Source of the DNA: a virus
IMG/VR virus record: IMGVR_UViG_3300020041_000001
Span: 1 to 6,573 of that record
Length of the DNA stretch: 6,573 nt
Direction: 5' to 3' (one strand)
The position numbers were made by a program, and so were the translations under genes. Positions 1,498 to 6,573 of this stretch are shown in pieces (position 1 is the stretch's first letter; the number at the start of each line of letters is the position of its first letter). The notes below the pieces were generated by a model. That model did no database searches and was not told the DNA's origin. It was given only the letters and a program-made list of their open reading frames with translations.

Positions 1498-1703
1498 ATA
1501 AAAACCTGTTTTTTTTGAATTAATCACTGTCATTTATCTAATATAAGGCAAGAAGTGAAGAGTTTTCGGCGGAGATTAACCGAAAACCCTTGCGGGATAA
1601 ATGAAATAGGCTTTCGCCAGTGAAGGCCGCGAAGGTGAGGAGGAACTCAACCACGCGTCCGAAAGATTATTTTCTTTAGGTAGCGCGCTACGCGCGGATT
1701 TTA

Positions 1704-1723
1704 CAGCCGTTAACTAACGGCTG
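1704..1723. repeat. Near-perfect 20-nt palindrome CAGCCGTTA-ac-TAACGGCTG.
   Basis: 1704..1712 is the exact reverse complement of 1715..1723. It contains a GTTAAC palindrome. Confidence 0.85.
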
Positions 1724-1811
1724 GTGCTGTCCTGGCTTAACGCCAGATGCGCACGCGTCACGAGCTTCCAGCTCGCACCGCTACTATGCAGAATGTTCGC
1801 TGCTTATTTTT

Positions 1812-1856
1812 TAGGGGTATATAGGGGTGAACTGCAGCGCAGTAGTGAAGTGCAGC
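1812..1856. repeat. Iteron-like short direct repeats: TAGGGGT x2 and GTGAA(C/G)TGCAGC x2.
   Basis: TAGGGGT occurs at 1812..1818 and 1822..1828, 10 nt apart. GTGAACTGCAGC at 1827..1838 and GTGAAGTGCAGC at 1845..1856 match at 11 of 12 positions, 18 nt apart. AGTGAAG also occurs at 1554..1560, 1619..1625 and 1844..1850. Confidence 0.6.
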
Positions 1857-1904
1857 ATGTTAATGAATAAGATAAGGACAAAGCTGCACCCACACTACGT
1901 GCGT
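1837..1904. repeat. Long imperfect inverted repeat (hairpin) with a 26-nt AT-rich loop.
   Basis: Pairs checked base by base: 1850-1856/1883-1889 (7 bp); 1842-1847/1893-1898 (6 bp) across an aa/cca internal loop; 1838-1841/1900-1903 (4 bp) with 1899 bulged. The loop 1857..1882 is ATGTTAATGAATAAGATAAGGACAAA. Confidence 0.7.
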
Positions 1905-2002
1905 GGTGTGCGGCTTCGCCGATATCAAGGTGCTGGACGCTAAGGGACGTTACCACGTCCAGTTACCTGAGGTCCGTTCAGGCCACGGAGGCCTACCGAC
2001 TA

Positions 2003-3112
2003 TCAATAACGATTATAAGTTCTATTACCGTGAATATAAGTATTAGAAGCCGAACGCTTACGAAAACTACCAGCATTTCCAATAGCATTTCCAACAGTTC
2101 CAAGTGCATTAAGGCCTTCAGACCAATAGCGCTTATCAAATTGCCATTTAGTATTAAGAGCATCCATACGAGACTTCAATACCGACGCAGGAATATATTT
2201 TTTACCTTCTTCAATAAATGGAGAGTTGATATCATAGGAGGCAGCATATTCCGCATTAAGAGCTCTCATGTAAGCATCAGAAGTTTCCTCGGCAACCTTA
2301 TTATCGATCCGCAAACCTTTAGCTTCGGCAGACATAACCAAGCGCTTGGTAATCTCAGATTTAGCTTGCTGATATTTTAAATGACCAGAAGCCATAGCGT
2401 CATAATATTGAGCCGCCATTAAATCCAATTGAAGGCGTTGACCTTCATCAAGATACTTATTGATAACCTGTTTAGATTTGTTGTCTAATAAGACACCAAG
2501 ACGCTGAGCCTGAATCAAATTACCGGACCACTGCATATTACGAAGATTTTGACGATCAGTCTGAAATTGCAGACCAGCACGAGCAAGACCAGTCATTTGA
2601 GACCACTTCTTGTACTCAGGGCCTAATTTCCACCAATCGACGTTCGAGAGAATACTATTAGCCTGTGCGTCGAACAGAGACTTCTGGCTCTGGAGACTCT
2701 GAACATTAGCATTCGTTTCTTTAGTTTGGTTAGCAATCTGAAGAGCCGAAGAGAGAGCGTTAGAGAGACCGGAAAAATCCTGACGCTGCATAGAGAGAGG
2801 AGAAGCAGCGGTAGCCGGAGAAGTAGAACCGACAGAAGAAGCAGTTCCTGCATTACCACCAGTCATCATTAAATAGGGATTCAAACCAGCTTGCGAGAGA
2901 CGCTGGAGCTGAGAAGAAGCCGAATTGTATTCATTTTCACGATTCCACATATCCAATTGGAACTGCCGAGCCTTCTCAGCTTCGGCAGCATTAAACTCAT
3001 TATTCATCTGATTAATAGCCATGTTCGTTTTATTGGTTTTGTTCGTAGAAATAGCATTACCAACAGCAGAAGAAACTTGGCCAACAACCGGAATAAAATC
3101 AAGAAGTCCCAT
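2003..3112 (-). CDS. VP2: Minor capsid / DNA pilot protein VP2 (phiX174 gpH analogue), 369 aa.
   Basis: Track ORF. Gly/Ser/Asn/Gln-rich with a coiled-coil-like centre and the ...RLSQAGLNPYLMM... motif typical of gokushovirus/alpavirus VP2 (recognised from memory). The ATG lies 2 nt after the stop of the preceding ORF. Its position downstream of VP1 fits the family layout. Confidence 0.85.
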   Translation of the reverse strand: MGLLDFIPVVGQVSSAVGNAISTNKTNKTNMAINQMNNEFNAAEAEKARQFQLDMWNRENEYNSASSQLQRLSQAGLNPYLMMTGGNAGTASSVGSTSPATAASPLSMQRQDFSGLSNALSSALQIANQTKETNANVQSLQSQKSLFDAQANSILSNVDWWKLGPEYKKWSQMTGLARAGLQFQTDRQNLRNMQWSGNLIQAQRLGVLLDNKSKQVINKYLDEGQRLQLDLMAAQYYDAMASGHLKYQQAKSEITKRLVMSAEAKGLRIDNKVAEETSDAYMRALNAEYAASYDINSPFIEEGKKYIPASVLKSRMDALNTKWQFDKRYWSEGLNALGTVGNAIGNAGSFRKRSASNTYIHGNRTYNRY

Positions 3113-3114
3113 AA

Positions 3115-3636
3115 TTATTCAGATTGAGAGACAGATTGAGATTGAAGTTCAGAAGCAGAAGCCTCTGTATCAGAAGCTTCCTTTTCAAGAGAAATACGTT
3201 CAGCTTCTCGCTCAATATCCTTAGCTTGTTCTATAAGGTACTCACTCCAGGCGATAAGTTCCGAAGGAGATTGGAGATGACGAGACTTAATAGTATCAAG
3301 AATCTGAGCATCACTCATCTGGTCCATTTGAGACTGAATAGAACTAGACTTAGGACGACGCATATCAATCATGGATTGAACAAATCCAGGTCCATATTTC
3401 TTGGCCATATCAGCAGCATGAAGTAACATACTCACATCAGAACGAATACGAATATACTCATCTTCTTCAGTTCCGTTTTTTTCAAAACGAAAGGGTTCAG
3501 TAGGAAGTTCTTCTAAAACAATATCAGGCTCAGAAGAAGCACATATAGGACACAACTGAACATCACGAACAGATTCACTCTTACGATATCCAGGGCCGAA
3601 GCATTTTTTGTTTCTATTTTCCTCTTTATTTTTCAT
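3115..3636 (-). CDS. Hypothetical 173-aa protein. By position it is a candidate internal scaffolding (VP3-like) protein.
   Basis: Track ORF wedged between VP1 (7-nt gap) and VP2 (2-nt gap). Basic N-terminus with three Cys (KKCFGPGY...QLCPIC) and a strongly acidic Ser/Glu-rich C-terminus. The function is assigned from position only. Confidence 0.72.
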   Translation of the reverse strand: MKNKEENRNKKCFGPGYRKSESVRDVQLCPICASSEPDIVLEELPTEPFRFEKNGTEEDEYIRIRSDVSMLLHAADMAKKYGPGFVQSMIDMRRPKSSSIQSQMDQMSDAQILDTIKSRHLQSPSELIAWSEYLIEQAKDIEREAERISLEKEASDTEASASELQSQSVSQSE

Positions 3637-3643
3637 AACTTAA

Positions 3644-5557
3644 TCAATAAGGTACACCGTCAGCAGACAGTGGACGAGTTACATAACAACCAACATTGCA
3701 ATTCACCAACAGTTGATCAGTTTCCCAAGTAGAATCAACCTTAACAGCAAAAATATCATCAAGAGTATTCGGATTTACCTTGAAGAAGGGCCAAGTAACA
3801 CCTTTATAAGTGGAGAGGTTTCCGCCGAATAAGGAGTACAAGAACGAATCGTCAATAGGAGCAACCCAATCCTTAAGAGTAGTGGTAAATGCACCGTGAA
3901 TTCGATCAATCTTAGTCTTCCAATTATAATAGCGAGGATTATAGCCCAGAATCTTATCCGCAGAATTAACATTCGAATACAGAGCAGAATTCATAAGCTC
4001 AACAGCGGGAACTGATTCCATGCCAATGCTATCAAATTCAGGAATAGGCAGATCTTCAACAGATGTAACAAGAAGTTGACCGTCAGGGGCACTGATCGCG
4101 TAATCCAAGAGAGGAACAGCGTGATATATGCACATAAGAATGTAATATCCAGAGCCAGTATTAAATGTCATAGAACCTTGGCCAGAACCAACACCTTTAC
4201 CATATATATATGCCTGGTCAGTTTCAGAAGACAAATGTTGATTAATAACCTCAGAAATATCAAGATTACGAGCAATACCTCCGATATATTTAGCCATATG
4301 AGACTCAGATTGAGGAACATTGACACCGAAATGAGCCTTAATCTGATCTCTATAATTGGTATCAACAGACTGAGTAATCTCTTTCCACTTCTGAAGAGCT
4401 TCCGCTTGACGAAGAGCAAGTACAGAAAATTTCAAATTTAAATCAGGAGAGTTGCCCAATACAGCCCAGAGATTGGCATTAGCACGAACTGAAATACCGT
4501 CAGAGTCACGAGGATAAATTTGCGTAAACTTATCAGTACCAGAAGAGAGATTTGCGCTTTCAGAGGAAGTTTGGAGCTGTTTAAATTTACCAGAATCATT
4601 AACACCGTCATAAGCTCCAACAGGAACTTTGGAACCATTAATAGACACTGAACCAAGGTCTACTACTGCAAGATCACCAAATTGAGAATTCGGGAGAACA
4701 CCCATAAATTTATCCTTATTCCAATTGGCGTAGCGAAGAGAGAATAAATTGTCTCGTTTCCAATAACCATTACCTGCAACAATAGAACCAGAGAGACCAG
4801 AAGGTCCAAATAGATTACCAGTACCAGTATACCAATCAAAATTATAAGAGGTAGGATCTGCATTTTCCCATTGAGACCAACGAAAAAAATCTTGATAAAT
4901 CTTCTGATACGCAGCAAGAGGAAATAGGTTGACAGCTAAGTTAACGTTATATTTCTGAGAGTAGCTAGAACTACTAGAGAGAGCAGCCTGCATATTCCAC
5001 CAGCGATTAGTACCTGTACCAATCCATGAAGAATCAGAGCGAACAACATTTCCGTAATCCAACATTGTTAGCAATTTGTGATTAACATCTCCTCGATTAT
5101 ATCCAAAAATATTACCAAATCCGGATATAACAGAAACATCATCTCCTAACTGAGTAGGGCTGCCACCCGCAAATTTAAGAGAATCCGCAAGATCACTTAG
5201 AGCGCAATAGGGTAAATCTCCTTTAACAGTAAGATTTGTCAATAGATCCTTAGATTGCAAGGGAGCTTTCTCTCCCATTTGAATAACGGCAGAATCAAAT
5301 GACTTCCAAATAAGATCACAAGGAACTGCAAAAAAATCAAAATACTCTCGAATACGAGTATAAGCAGAAGTTTGCACAGGACGAGTACGAGTAAAATACT
5401 CTAGATTAAACTTGTACGTACAATTAGGAATCGCAAAATCAGTCCAAACAGGCAACAATTCTCCAATTTTAGCCGTAAAGCAATTTTTAGCAGAGATATC
5501 GTGACCAGATTTATGGGGTCTATTCTGCAATTCCTTAAGACCAGTAAAATGAGCCAT
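3644..5557 (-). CDS. VP1: Major capsid protein VP1 (Microviridae F-protein family), 637 aa.
   Basis: Longest ORF. The N-terminus MAHFTGLKELQNRPHKSGHDISAKNCFTAKIGELLPVW...YFTRTRPVQTSAYTRIREYFDFFAVPCDLIW matches the conserved N-terminal signature of Microviridae capsid proteins (recognised from memory, no search run). Its size fits the larger alpavirus-like VP1. Confidence 0.95.
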   Translation of the reverse strand: MAHFTGLKELQNRPHKSGHDISAKNCFTAKIGELLPVWTDFAIPNCTYKFNLEYFTRTRPVQTSAYTRIREYFDFFAVPCDLIWKSFDSAVIQMGEKAPLQSKDLLTNLTVKGDLPYCALSDLADSLKFAGGSPTQLGDDVSVISGFGNIFGYNRGDVNHKLLTMLDYGNVVRSDSSWIGTGTNRWWNMQAALSSSSSYSQKYNVNLAVNLFPLAAYQKIYQDFFRWSQWENADPTSYNFDWYTGTGNLFGPSGLSGSIVAGNGYWKRDNLFSLRYANWNKDKFMGVLPNSQFGDLAVVDLGSVSINGSKVPVGAYDGVNDSGKFKQLQTSSESANLSSGTDKFTQIYPRDSDGISVRANANLWAVLGNSPDLNLKFSVLALRQAEALQKWKEITQSVDTNYRDQIKAHFGVNVPQSESHMAKYIGGIARNLDISEVINQHLSSETDQAYIYGKGVGSGQGSMTFNTGSGYYILMCIYHAVPLLDYAISAPDGQLLVTSVEDLPIPEFDSIGMESVPAVELMNSALYSNVNSADKILGYNPRYYNWKTKIDRIHGAFTTTLKDWVAPIDDSFLYSLFGGNLSTYKGVTWPFFKVNPNTLDDIFAVKVDSTWETDQLLVNCNVGCYVTRPLSADGVPY

Positions 5558-5567
5558 AATAAAAAAA

Positions 5568-6573
5568 TTAAGAATTTAACAACAAACCACTAAGATCATT
5601 AAATTCCTTATGTTTAACCTTATCTACGCACGCCTTCCGATTGTCAGCAGTTAACTTCATAAGGAATTTGTCACTTAGTTCATAATCATAAGAATATACT
5701 TTTTTAACCTTTTTCTCATTATCCTCATTAGTAGAATTCTTTACTTCATTGTAAGCAGAACGAGAAAACAAAAATGACCGCTGTTCATCGGTACAATTCT
5801 CAAGAAACTCATAATAATCATGAAGTTGACGACGAGCAAATTCATTCCAATAAGAATCAGAAGCTTTCATGAGAGCATATATAGGACCTCGACGATAAAT
5901 ATCTACATAACCAAACAAATTCCAAAACCTAGCAGAACGAATAACCGTGTTAAAGAGCCTATAAAATTTGTTATAAATCTGATCATAAGTAAGACAATGC
6001 CAATACTTACGATTAGGAGCATCAAGGCGAACAGTAGCAACTATAAGTTCATCGTCGGAATGAACAAAACCTTTATCTGCACGATCAAGGAAAAAATCAG
6101 TATAAGCATGAGCAAGCTCAGAAACAGGAGAAACAGATTTATCGTAAGTTATGTCCAGATATCCGAAACGAATGAGCCTCTCGGGTGCAAAGAACGCAGA
6201 TGAAAATACGTAAGCACTGCTATGTGCAGATTTGCAAACAAGATTCGAGAATCTGGGGAATACGGTATGTTTATACGACCGTGAAGGGTAGATCTGTTTA
6301 ACTTTACCATTAATAGAGAGGCTTTCTCCATTAAGGAGGATAGAGGACATTTTTTCAAGCTCATGTATCGTGGCTTGAGTGGGAAAGACATAATTGTTTC
6401 CATATCCCTTCGAGTGGAGGGAACGCGCTCTAATCTCTCTATGCTCGAGGTATAATGAAGGTAAGCATACGCTACTATTAACATACGACGCAACGTAGGA
6501 AGAAGAGCCTCCTCGCGATAATTCACAAGTCGTACGACCGTAGGACCAACTCTCAGATACAAGTCGCTGTATA
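5568..6573 (-). CDS. VP4: Replication initiation protein VP4, C-terminal part. 6453..6573 duplicates 1..121; the unique part 5568..6452 is 294 aa plus the stop.
   Basis: The track lists a 260-aa ORF from M at 6350, but the same frame stays open upstream to the window end: ...CLPSLYLEHREIRARSLHSKGYGNNYVFPTQATIHELEK-M... checked codon by codon over 6455..6348. TAA stop at 5570..5568, 10 nt before the VP1 start. Confidence 0.92.
   Translation of the reverse strand, partial: IQRLVSESWSYGRTTCELSRGGSSSYVASYVNSSVCLPSLYLEHREIRARSLHSKGYGNNYVFPTQATIHELEKMSSILLNGESLSINGKVKQIYPSRSYKHTVFPRFSNLVCKSAHSSAYVFSSAFFAPERLIRFGYLDITYDKSVSPVSELAHAYTDFFLDRADKGFVHSDDELIVATVRLDAPNRKYWHCLTYDQIYNKFYRLFNTVIRSARFWNLFGYVDIYRRGPIYALMKASDSYWNEFARRQLHDYYEFLENCTDEQRSFLFSRSAYNEVKNSTNEDNEKKVKKVYSYDYELSDKFLMKLTADNRKACVDKVKHKEFNDLSGLLLNS
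6453..6573. repeat. Terminal direct repeat, copy 2 (identical to 1..121).
   Basis: Same comparison as copy 1. Confidence 0.97.

Follow-up and report, generated by a model that had tools for sequence, protein, structure and literature searches.

What purpose does a long non-coding gap serve in a genome that otherwise leaves almost no room between its genes? The DNA analyzed here, the 6573-nt stretch of IMG/VR record IMGVR_UViG_3300020041_000001 that we call the window, holds the entire circular genome of a microvirus: positions 1–121 recur at 6453–6573 as a terminal redundancy, which leaves a circle of 6452 nt. Every long open reading frame (ORF) lies on the minus strand, neighboring genes are 2–10 nt apart, and the sole sizeable gap between them spans positions 1441–2002. 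An earlier reading of the bare sequence, the original prediction, had described in this compact genome a GC- and CpG-rich island of back-to-back hairpins that lacks any ORF of 60 aa or more. Our counts reproduce that picture: positions 1561–2000 contain 233 G or C in 440 (53%, against 38% in the rest of the genome and 25/60 in the coding line 3121–3180), the CpG observed/expected ratio is 1.21 versus 0.91, the spacing of the genes outside the gap is as tight as stated, and the longest stop-free stretch within 1441–2002 is 52 aa. We propose that the island is an exchangeable, orientation-dependent single-strand origin region, most likely for initiation of the complementary strand, which may include a phiX174-like nick motif for the replication protein Rep. 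From the comparative sequence analysis that follows, we put the probability of this reading at roughly 55%.

The constant part of the island is a universal core of about 190 nt (1814–2000), represented in our collection by 81 distinct microvirus sequences. BLAST against GenBank phages found the region in 19 microvirus records, where it is 84–88% identical to the window, compared with 75–81% genome-wide, and more distant microviruses have only 1901–1995 in common with it. An exact scan for a 25-nt block at its center (1921–1945) returned 19 contigs from IMG/VR and 35 from metagenomes; nearly all of them have the size of a microvirus genome and stem from the gut. The element is also present, with a slightly altered block, in each of nine genomes retrieved solely for the similarity of their Rep, and additional block variants came from a scan anchored on the two neighboring helices, Pa and Pb, in which the block itself was not forced. 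Outside microviruses the core was not encountered: its block had no exact match in 185,579 bacterial species genomes, a plasmid BLAST of the core found nothing, and no Bacteroides plasmid carries it.

The core consists of five helices and two pseudoknots arranged around the 25-nt block, which is nearly invariant and mostly unpaired. In an alignment of 56 sequences, 93% of the cells assigned to helices can pair, versus 75.6% after shuffling, and 20 of the 31 pairs show double changes; the covariation score of 0.445 compares with 0.131 for shuffled alignments, was reached by none of 500 shuffles, and stands against at most 0.086 for controls in which the structure was slid along the alignment. 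The core structure is under selection for intrastrand pairing. The stems are conserved in homologs by compensatory changes, a check that the original prediction had proposed, and are no quirk of one genome.

Support extends to individual elements, assigned here to the minus strand and with pair types counted over up to 81 sequences. Helix Pa (1886–1909; ten pairs, one bulge) has double changes in seven of its pairs, and helix Pb (1911–1921; four pairs and a triloop) contains a pair, 1913–1919, found as G:C in 51 sequences, A:U in 14, C:G in 13, and U:A in two. The near-invariant block (1921–1945) reads GATATCAAGGTGCTGGACGCTAAGG on the plus strand and CCTTAGCGTCCAGCACCTTGATATC on the minus strand. 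Within it a mini-hairpin of two pairs (1932–1940) covaries, pair 1932:1940 changing from G:C to A:T in genomes L066, L067, L069, L074, and L108, and pair 1933:1939 from C:G to T:A in L071 and L072. Helix Pc (1944–1961) has six to seven pairs, four of them with double changes (for example G:C in 43 and A:U in 38 sequences). Its loop (1951–1954) engages in the first pseudoknot, PK1, where positions 1952–1954 pair with 1971–1973; this interaction shows the top covariation of all column pairs, and two of its pairs occur in all four Watson–Crick types (U:A 15, G:C 14, A:U 13, C:G 10). Farther along, at 1974–1994, helix S1 (1974–1977/1985–1988) has double changes in three of four pairs, and its loop (1980–1984) may form the second pseudoknot, PK2, with 1990–1994, at the site where a GGCC-ACGGA-GGCC stem had been noticed before. 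Support for PK2 is moderate: loop and tail are complementary over at least 3 bp in 25 of 30 distinct variants, versus 41% of shuffled tails, and one compensatory change, C:G to G:C, was seen. On its other side the core opens with a variable domain (1814–1885), which starts with a conserved GGGGTATATAGGGG (1814–1827) and ends with GATAAGG (1871–1877); its helices differ between subfamilies, and its structure is partly resolved.

Several other pairings did not withstand the alignment. The switch proposed originally, in which 1933–1939/1956–1962 competes with 1945–1950/1955–1960, is specific to the window, because it depends on G1935, an A in almost all relatives. A tRNA-like T-arm formed from GUUCAAAC, with a UUCAAAC-like loop, was rejected since the closing pair U1977:A1985 covaries as a Watson–Crick pair (U:A/C:G), which a T-loop would not allow. 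An 11-nt receptor for a GAAA tetraloop (CUAAG/UAUGG) lacks a conserved partner strand, and pairing of GGUGC in the block with a GCNCC linker after Pc is inconsistent among sequences and competes with the covariation-supported mini-hairpin. One sequence feature stands apart from these helices: the first half of the invariant block is echoed some 75–95 nt away, at the far end of the element, as TATCAA in the window's lineage (1924–1929 and 2002–2007, the second copy overlapping the stop codon of the pilot gene) and as GATACTAT, present twice, in the B-type genomes L088 and L100.

The decisive observation concerns the element's relation to strand. With respect to the genes it occurs in both orientations, which excludes a role in cis in phage mRNAs and would seem to exclude one on the packaged strand as well, unless packaging polarity differs between genomes. 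With respect to base composition, its orientation is fixed: the sense that is minus in the window lies on the T-rich, C-poor strand in all 64 distinct carriers of genome size. In the 30 genomes arranged like the window, third codon positions read in gene sense have T, A, G, and C frequencies of.54,.18,.17, and.11, and in the 34 genomes with the opposite arrangement (among them L005–L008, L010, L011, L013–L022, L026, L064, and L065) the corresponding values are A.51, T.18, C.20, and G.12, the exact complement. At least three independent cases have one element subfamily represented in both classes, all obeying the rule: the D-type in L063 and L064, the B-type in L009, L088, and others versus L006 and others, and, as the third, the A-type. 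It is also obeyed by a microvirus integrated in Bacteroides finegoldii. On its known viral strand, phiX174 has third-position frequencies of.47 for T and.13 for A. Deamination of C to T is about 100 times faster in single-stranded DNA (ssDNA) and shapes codon use in ssDNA phages (PMC4032129). Judged by composition, as in phiX174, we infer that the T-rich strand is the packaged one.

The two classes of carrier are otherwise far apart. Identity is 23% over 117 aa between their Rep proteins and about 21% between their capsid proteins. Yet B-type and D-type elements occur in both, with cores 80–90% identical, and block variants such as GATACTATGG are common to the two classes. Near-identical cores beside such divergent proteins indicate that the element moves between unrelated microviruses, and it lands, or survives, always in one orientation relative to the T-rich strand. 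Two side observations may be added. In the D-type, short direct repeats lie on either side of the element (CGACTACA on both sides in L004, 880–1110; GACT/CGACT in L005, 880–1110, and in L013), which could be chance or a trace of cassette exchange. Contig L043 (10,976 nt) contains two different copies from two subfamilies, at 3050–3200 and 9004–9154; a heterodimer, the joint assembly of two phages, or a chimera could account for this.

We propose the following model. The non-coding cassette would act as folded ssDNA on the packaged, T-rich strand, which in the window is the gene-sense minus strand. Upon entry of the circular ssDNA into a Bacteroidales cell, a host enzyme would recognize the fold together with the invariant block, and complementary-strand synthesis would start from a primer made by this enzyme; RNA polymerase, primase, and a PriA-type primosome are the candidates. 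The block may in addition carry a nick site for Rep, CCTTG/ATATC, comparable to CAACTTG/ATATT in phiX174. DNA rather than RNA is probably the active form. Priming is the probable function, as at established sites where a primer for the complementary strand is made on ssDNA: the intergenic region of Ff, the origin of G4, the n′ site of phiX174, and the single-strand origin (sso) elements of rolling-circle plasmids. Among the roles listed in the original prediction, a complementary-strand or replication origin of this general kind is the best supported. The reading draws further support from what the island is not: it resembles no known RNA, and its core occurs in no bacterial genome or plasmid. 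Rfam 15 cmscan searches (E ≤ 10) of the window and six relatives placed no match inside the element, in agreement with the earlier failure to recognize a family; ARAGORN detected no tRNA or tmRNA in the island; and a scan of 1400–2060 on both strands found neither sigma-70-type promoters nor intrinsic terminators, so that the suggested terminator cluster has zero candidate sites.

How does the element compare with established origins? The closest likeness is to the plasmid sso types (ssoA, ssoU, ssoT, ssoW), which are non-coding, extensively paired, used in one orientation, swapped between unrelated Reps, and presumed to engage host factors. Such elements function on the displaced strand, in one orientation only, and are exchanged independently of Rep. 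Both properties have their counterparts here, in the 64 of 64 carriers with the same sense on the T-rich strand (the single-stranded status of which comes from composition) and in the same subfamilies residing beside Reps only 23% identical. There is no sequence relationship, the pseudoknots and the phage setting belong to our element, and its function is assigned by analogy. The ssoA motif CS-6, which we take to be TAGCGT located in a terminal loop beside the RS_B site, does appear in the minus sense of the common block, where it spans stem and loop and is lost in variants (TAACGA, GAGCGT); we do not consider it an equivalent.

The Ff phages (M13/f1/fd), which are compact ssDNA phages too, likewise have just one non-coding region, some 0.5 kb long. 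This intergenic region consists of consecutive hairpins and bundles a complementary-strand origin, the nick site for the Rep protein gpII, and strand-specific signals; moreover, Ff G2P and the window's Rep belong to the same Pfam family (PF23343). Unlike the element, it belongs to another phage family, it shares no sequence similarity, and its hairpins mimic a sigma-70 promoter, a mimicry we did not find in the element. We know of no swapping of the Ff region between distant phages. The Bullavirinae, which belong to the same virus family as the window, use intergenic hairpins on the viral strand to convert ssDNA to the replicative form, namely the primase origin of G4, alpha3, and St-1 and the n′ PriA site of phiX174. 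At these sites the structure is limited to between one and three simple hairpins; pseudoknots and any long invariant block are missing, there is no sequence similarity to the element, and the host is enterobacterial rather than one of the Bacteroidales. The element shares with them hairpins in a gap of the putative viral strand; a CTG, the start trinucleotide of Escherichia coli primase, which the primase of Bacteroidales may or may not use, is not conserved in it, and the mini-hairpin loop usually ends in CTA or TTA.

Several observations weigh against an origin acting as folded ssDNA. No recognizable primase, PriA, or promoter-mimic signal was identified in the element. The three-pair helices of the pseudoknots would be marginal in DNA and are more RNA-like. 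On the plus sense, the pairs at helix ends 1886–1909 and 1944–1961 are G·U in 79 and 63 of 81 sequences and seldom A:U or G:C, the unpaired positions are rich in A (31%) and poor in C (18%), and the minimum free energy with RNA parameters is the lower one in 45 of 55 sequences. The universal core seems to be absent from the integrated B. finegoldii phage. The likeness of the block to the phiX174 nick region is weak by itself, the 8-mer CTTGATAT occurring three times in the window and the motif varying at the presumed cleavage position in some lineages (TGAT, TAGT, or TAAT). Lastly, the model implies that half of the carriers are negative-sense microviruses, for which searchable literature offers no precedent.

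This last implication deserves to be stated in full. The choice of the strand to be displaced and packaged may lie with the cassette itself, as a portable origin traded between deeply divergent lineages with Bacteroidales hosts in common; wherever it is inverted relative to the genes, in 34 of the 64 carriers (e.g., OP549868 and OM869569), the virion would then contain the complement of the coding strand. We advance this extension tentatively, at somewhat less than even odds.

The properties of the plus sense listed above raise the most serious alternative, a structured non-coding RNA transcribed in the window's plus sense, antisense to the genes of this phage, from its own promoter or as a 3′ untranslated region. 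Such a transcript might serve in trans as a ribozyme, scaffold, or decoy; alternatively, the incoming ssDNA might be copied into a long folded RNA that works as a primer. The two strongly covarying pseudoknots, together with an invariant, unpaired stretch of 25 nt, are reminiscent of riboswitches and ribozymes, and in size, covarying helices, pseudoknots, and an invariant unpaired core the element is like the structured phage and bacterial RNAs in Rfam. The A-rich, C-poor unpaired positions, the G·U helix ends, and the lower RNA folding energies all fall on the same sense, where A-type genomes moreover have an upstream T-run and, after it, a conserved block. Unlike Rfam RNAs, however, the element is oriented by DNA strand composition and not by transcription units, and a gene has no evident reason to track composition over gene direction in 64 of 64 genomes. 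Neither an Rfam family nor a promoter nor a terminator was found. Candidate Bacteroidetes-type promoters for the element (a T-run then G upstream in A-type genomes; GATATTTG downstream in L006) are not conserved in relatives and cannot decide the strand.

The strand signals themselves conflict, with GNRA-type loops on one sense and G·U helix ends on the other. The original prediction took the gene-sense minus strand as probably the folded one from its loops, and CCC-GCAA-GGG and GGC-GAAA-GCC do read so there; the four-base loops of the A-type-specific hairpins are GNRA-like on that sense (GCAA, GUAA, GAAA, GAGA), a point also in favor of an RNA, if on the sense opposite to its other features. 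The strand chosen was probably right and the reasoning weak, as GNRA-type loops argue for RNA. The real evidence is the orientation following the T-rich strand, together with an internal wobble. Pair 1892–1902 of Pa is, on the plus sense, G:C in 50 sequences, an A·C mismatch in 27, and A:U in four; on the minus sense it is G:C, G·T, or A:T in 81 of 81, and it is the sole internal wobble position. For an RNA of plus sense this leaves a mismatch inside a helix in 27 of 81 sequences. Other measures are mixed. Folding beats dinucleotide shuffles on both strands with either parameter set, with z scores of −6.1 (minus) and −3.9 (plus) for RNA and −5.9 and −5.75 for DNA, so that as DNA both strands fold equally well. 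RNAalifold energies favor the minus sense (−34.2 versus −25.9) and single-sequence energies the plus sense, a comparison that is not decisive; counts of G·U versus A·C over all helices are even, save for three positions pointing in opposite ways; and minority substitutions in unpaired columns (G>A in 45 and C>T in 31 sequences) involve too few columns for use. Taken together, we consider a non-coding RNA unlikely, if a contender to be taken seriously. Its primer-RNA version, of plus sense, is compatible with the single-strand origin that we favor and could reconcile the mixed strand signals.

A second alternative also places the function in replication: the element would chiefly be the viral-strand (double-strand) origin, with Rep nicking the block at CCTTG/ATATC and the flanking hairpins extruding from the supercoiled replicative form to present the site. 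A phiX174-like CTTG/ATAT lies in the block at 1929–1922 on the minus strand. On the packaged strand the block reads GCACCTTGATATCG, which matches the nick region of phiX174, CAACTTG/ATATT, at 10 of 12 positions (CACCTTGATATC versus CAACTTGATATT); the phiX174 origin sequence and nick position were verified in NC_001422. In every carrier the motif falls on the T-rich strand, unpaired and flanked by Pb and the mini-hairpin, and the Rep belongs to the HUH-type family PF23343. The phiX174 origin in gene A (CAACTTG/ATATTAATAAC) shares with the element those 10 of 12 bases, including CTTGATAT, and a strand of viral type. It lies inside a gene without conserved flanking hairpins, and the AT-rich 3′ half of its nick sequence (TAATAAC) is absent from the element.

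Against a double-strand origin, the block is identical despite Reps that are 23% identical, and the cassette moves independently of Rep, which is unusual for pairs of Rep and origin. The presumed cleavage dinucleotide itself varies (CCATAGTATC, CCTTAGTATC, CCTTAATATC), the minus-sense consensus of the block being CCWTRRTATC in the sampling anchored on Pa and Pb. Finally, a nick site alone would not need a pseudoknotted structure of some 190 nt. We therefore regard this alternative as rather improbable as the chief function. Within the single-strand origin, we hold the block only loosely as a candidate Rep nick site, in the form CCTTGATATCG and its natural variants, because the genome contains further copies of the 8-mer, and the motif, common to phages with very different Reps, is not constant at the presumed cut in some lineages. 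By way of caution, the capsid gene contains TCTTGATATT (4257–4264, minus strand), a nine-base match to the phiX174 nick region (CTTGATATT) on the T-rich strand that is probably due to chance and shows how weak the motif evidence is when taken alone.

Strand-locking and structure would also be expected of a viral-strand signal for packaging or encapsidation, of which hairpin A in the Ff intergenic region is an example. The cassette is, however, nearly identical between classes whose capsids are about 21% identical, and in known microviruses packaging is coupled to Rep-driven synthesis and uses no separate signal; we think this very improbable. The idea of captured host DNA, an assembly chimera, or a dif-like attachment site for integration, suggested by a GC- and CpG-rich island in an AT-rich genome and by a hairpin module shared with the microvirus in B. 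finegoldii, is largely refuted, given the same architecture in many independent assemblies, exact scans of 185,579 species genomes for core and insertion without a match, the absence of the core from plasmids, the location of the B. finegoldii match inside an integrated phage, between its genes and outside host DNA, and compensatory changes, the mark of selection on pairing rather than on a duplex recombination site.

In regarding the island as a single unit, the original prediction recognized a genuine non-coding structured feature and missed that it is composite. Two common modules, at about 1525–1627 and 1803–2000, are parted in the window by an insertion of 173 nt. The first module lies on the minus strand and begins with a conserved AT-rich block (1525–1548; CACTGTCATTTATCTAATATAAGG on the plus strand) that is nearly invariant in 25 A-type sequences and confined to that type, the window's lineage. 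We tentatively considered that this block might pair with GATAAGGAC at 1871–1879; the corresponding long-range helix, 1528–1537/1871–1879, was rejected, with one-sided changes only. There follow three hairpins, which we call module 1 (1549–1627; about 1562–1569/1580–1587, 1587–1596, and 1609–1618), present in A-type relatives only, in which the alignment shows stems kept while the loops vary (GCAA, GUAA, GAA, and GGA on the minus sense).

The insertion (1628–1800, minus strand), with 55% GC the GC-richest part of the island, comprises about seven back-to-back GC-rich hairpins and is specific to a lineage: it is absent from MT837631, Dulem 244/245, and most A-type genomes, and present in five, the window plus L023, L033, L038, and L059, with its hairpins preserved in L059 through compensatory changes. 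It also contains both copies of the repeated 8-mer reported originally, CACGCGTC, found at 1652 and 1752 only; the palindromes listed along with it are present too, GCGCGC, ACGCGT (twice), and CTGCAG exclusively inside the island. An exact 30-mer from the insertion is absent from the 185,579 species genomes. Over 150 nt, the insertion is 71% identical to a non-coding gap of the microvirus integrated in B. finegoldii, with hairpins again kept by compensatory changes. That phage (L180 2974–3430, equal to NZ_OY725888.1 4634–5092; capsid WP_237923830.1) resides in a 123-kb Bacteroides replicon. The first half of its 456-nt multi-hairpin gap is homologous to the window's insertion, and one of the hairpins beyond it corresponds to the 5′ extension in another element subfamily. 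Module 1 and the insertion are, as far as these alignments indicate, lineage-specific hairpin additions to the same region.

The surrounding genome is laid out simply, all on the minus strand. Between the element and the next gene lies an AT-rich spacer (1441–1524, 19% GC), adjacent to the folded element but outside it, followed by three small ORFs (1440–775). The gene for Rep (551 aa, PF23343) runs from 771 across the junction of the window's ends to 5568, and its product compares with one of 322 aa in L064 (OP549868). The capsid gene (PF02305) occupies 5557–3644, a gene for a 173-aa protein comes between it and that for the pilot-like protein, and the latter (369 aa, 3112–2003) borders the element on its other side. 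Within the spacer, just upstream of the ORF at 1440–1234, the minus strand carries a promoter-like motif of Bacteroidetes type, TTTG (1497–1494) followed after 19 nt by TTACTTTG (1474–1467), both boxes of which are conserved in relatives as CAAAG and ACAAAATAAAA on the plus strand. Motifs of the form TTTG-N19–21-TAnnTTTG, which we take to be the Bacteroidetes promoter consensus, flank the element, and presumably the one at 1467–1497 functions as a promoter.

Which bacteria host these phages? The contig L039 (1–1520; OGRY01010653.1) is a metagenomic CRISPR array with 47-nt repeats and a period of 76–77 nt, and one of its spacers, TCGTCGATATCAAGGTGCTGGTCGCTAAGG, is identical to the invariant block, so that a host targets the most conserved part of the element. 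This spacer, the flanking promoter-like motifs, and the insertion in common with the B. finegoldii microvirus point to a Bacteroidales host. A first cultured system for a Bacteroides microvirus has been described (PMC13064476). In L035, L060, L054, and L044 the element adjoins GC-rich sequence without phage skew; these may be integrated copies or chimeric assemblies and could reveal hosts.

Structured origin regions in ssDNA replicons are known as a kind, and full-text literature searches found no description of this one. What makes it new as a family is the pseudoknotted fold, the transfer between distant phages, and its value as a marker for strand polarity. To our knowledge, almost nothing is known about the replication of the abundant gut microviruses outside the phiX174 group, and the element offers a concrete, sequence-defined candidate for their origin region. 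Should it instead prove to be an RNA, it would represent a new class, roughly 200 nt long and pseudoknotted, built around 25 invariant nucleotides. Were it to act as a mobile, host-dependent single-strand origin, it would be the phage counterpart of the plasmid sso cassettes and a host-range marker for Bacteroidales. Its strand-locking provides a computational rule for the packaged strand of metagenomic microviruses, by element orientation or by the skew between A and T at third codon positions. The rule predicts a large, unrecognized class of microviruses with genes on the complement of the virion DNA, a negative-sense class that, if confirmed, would surprise specialists.

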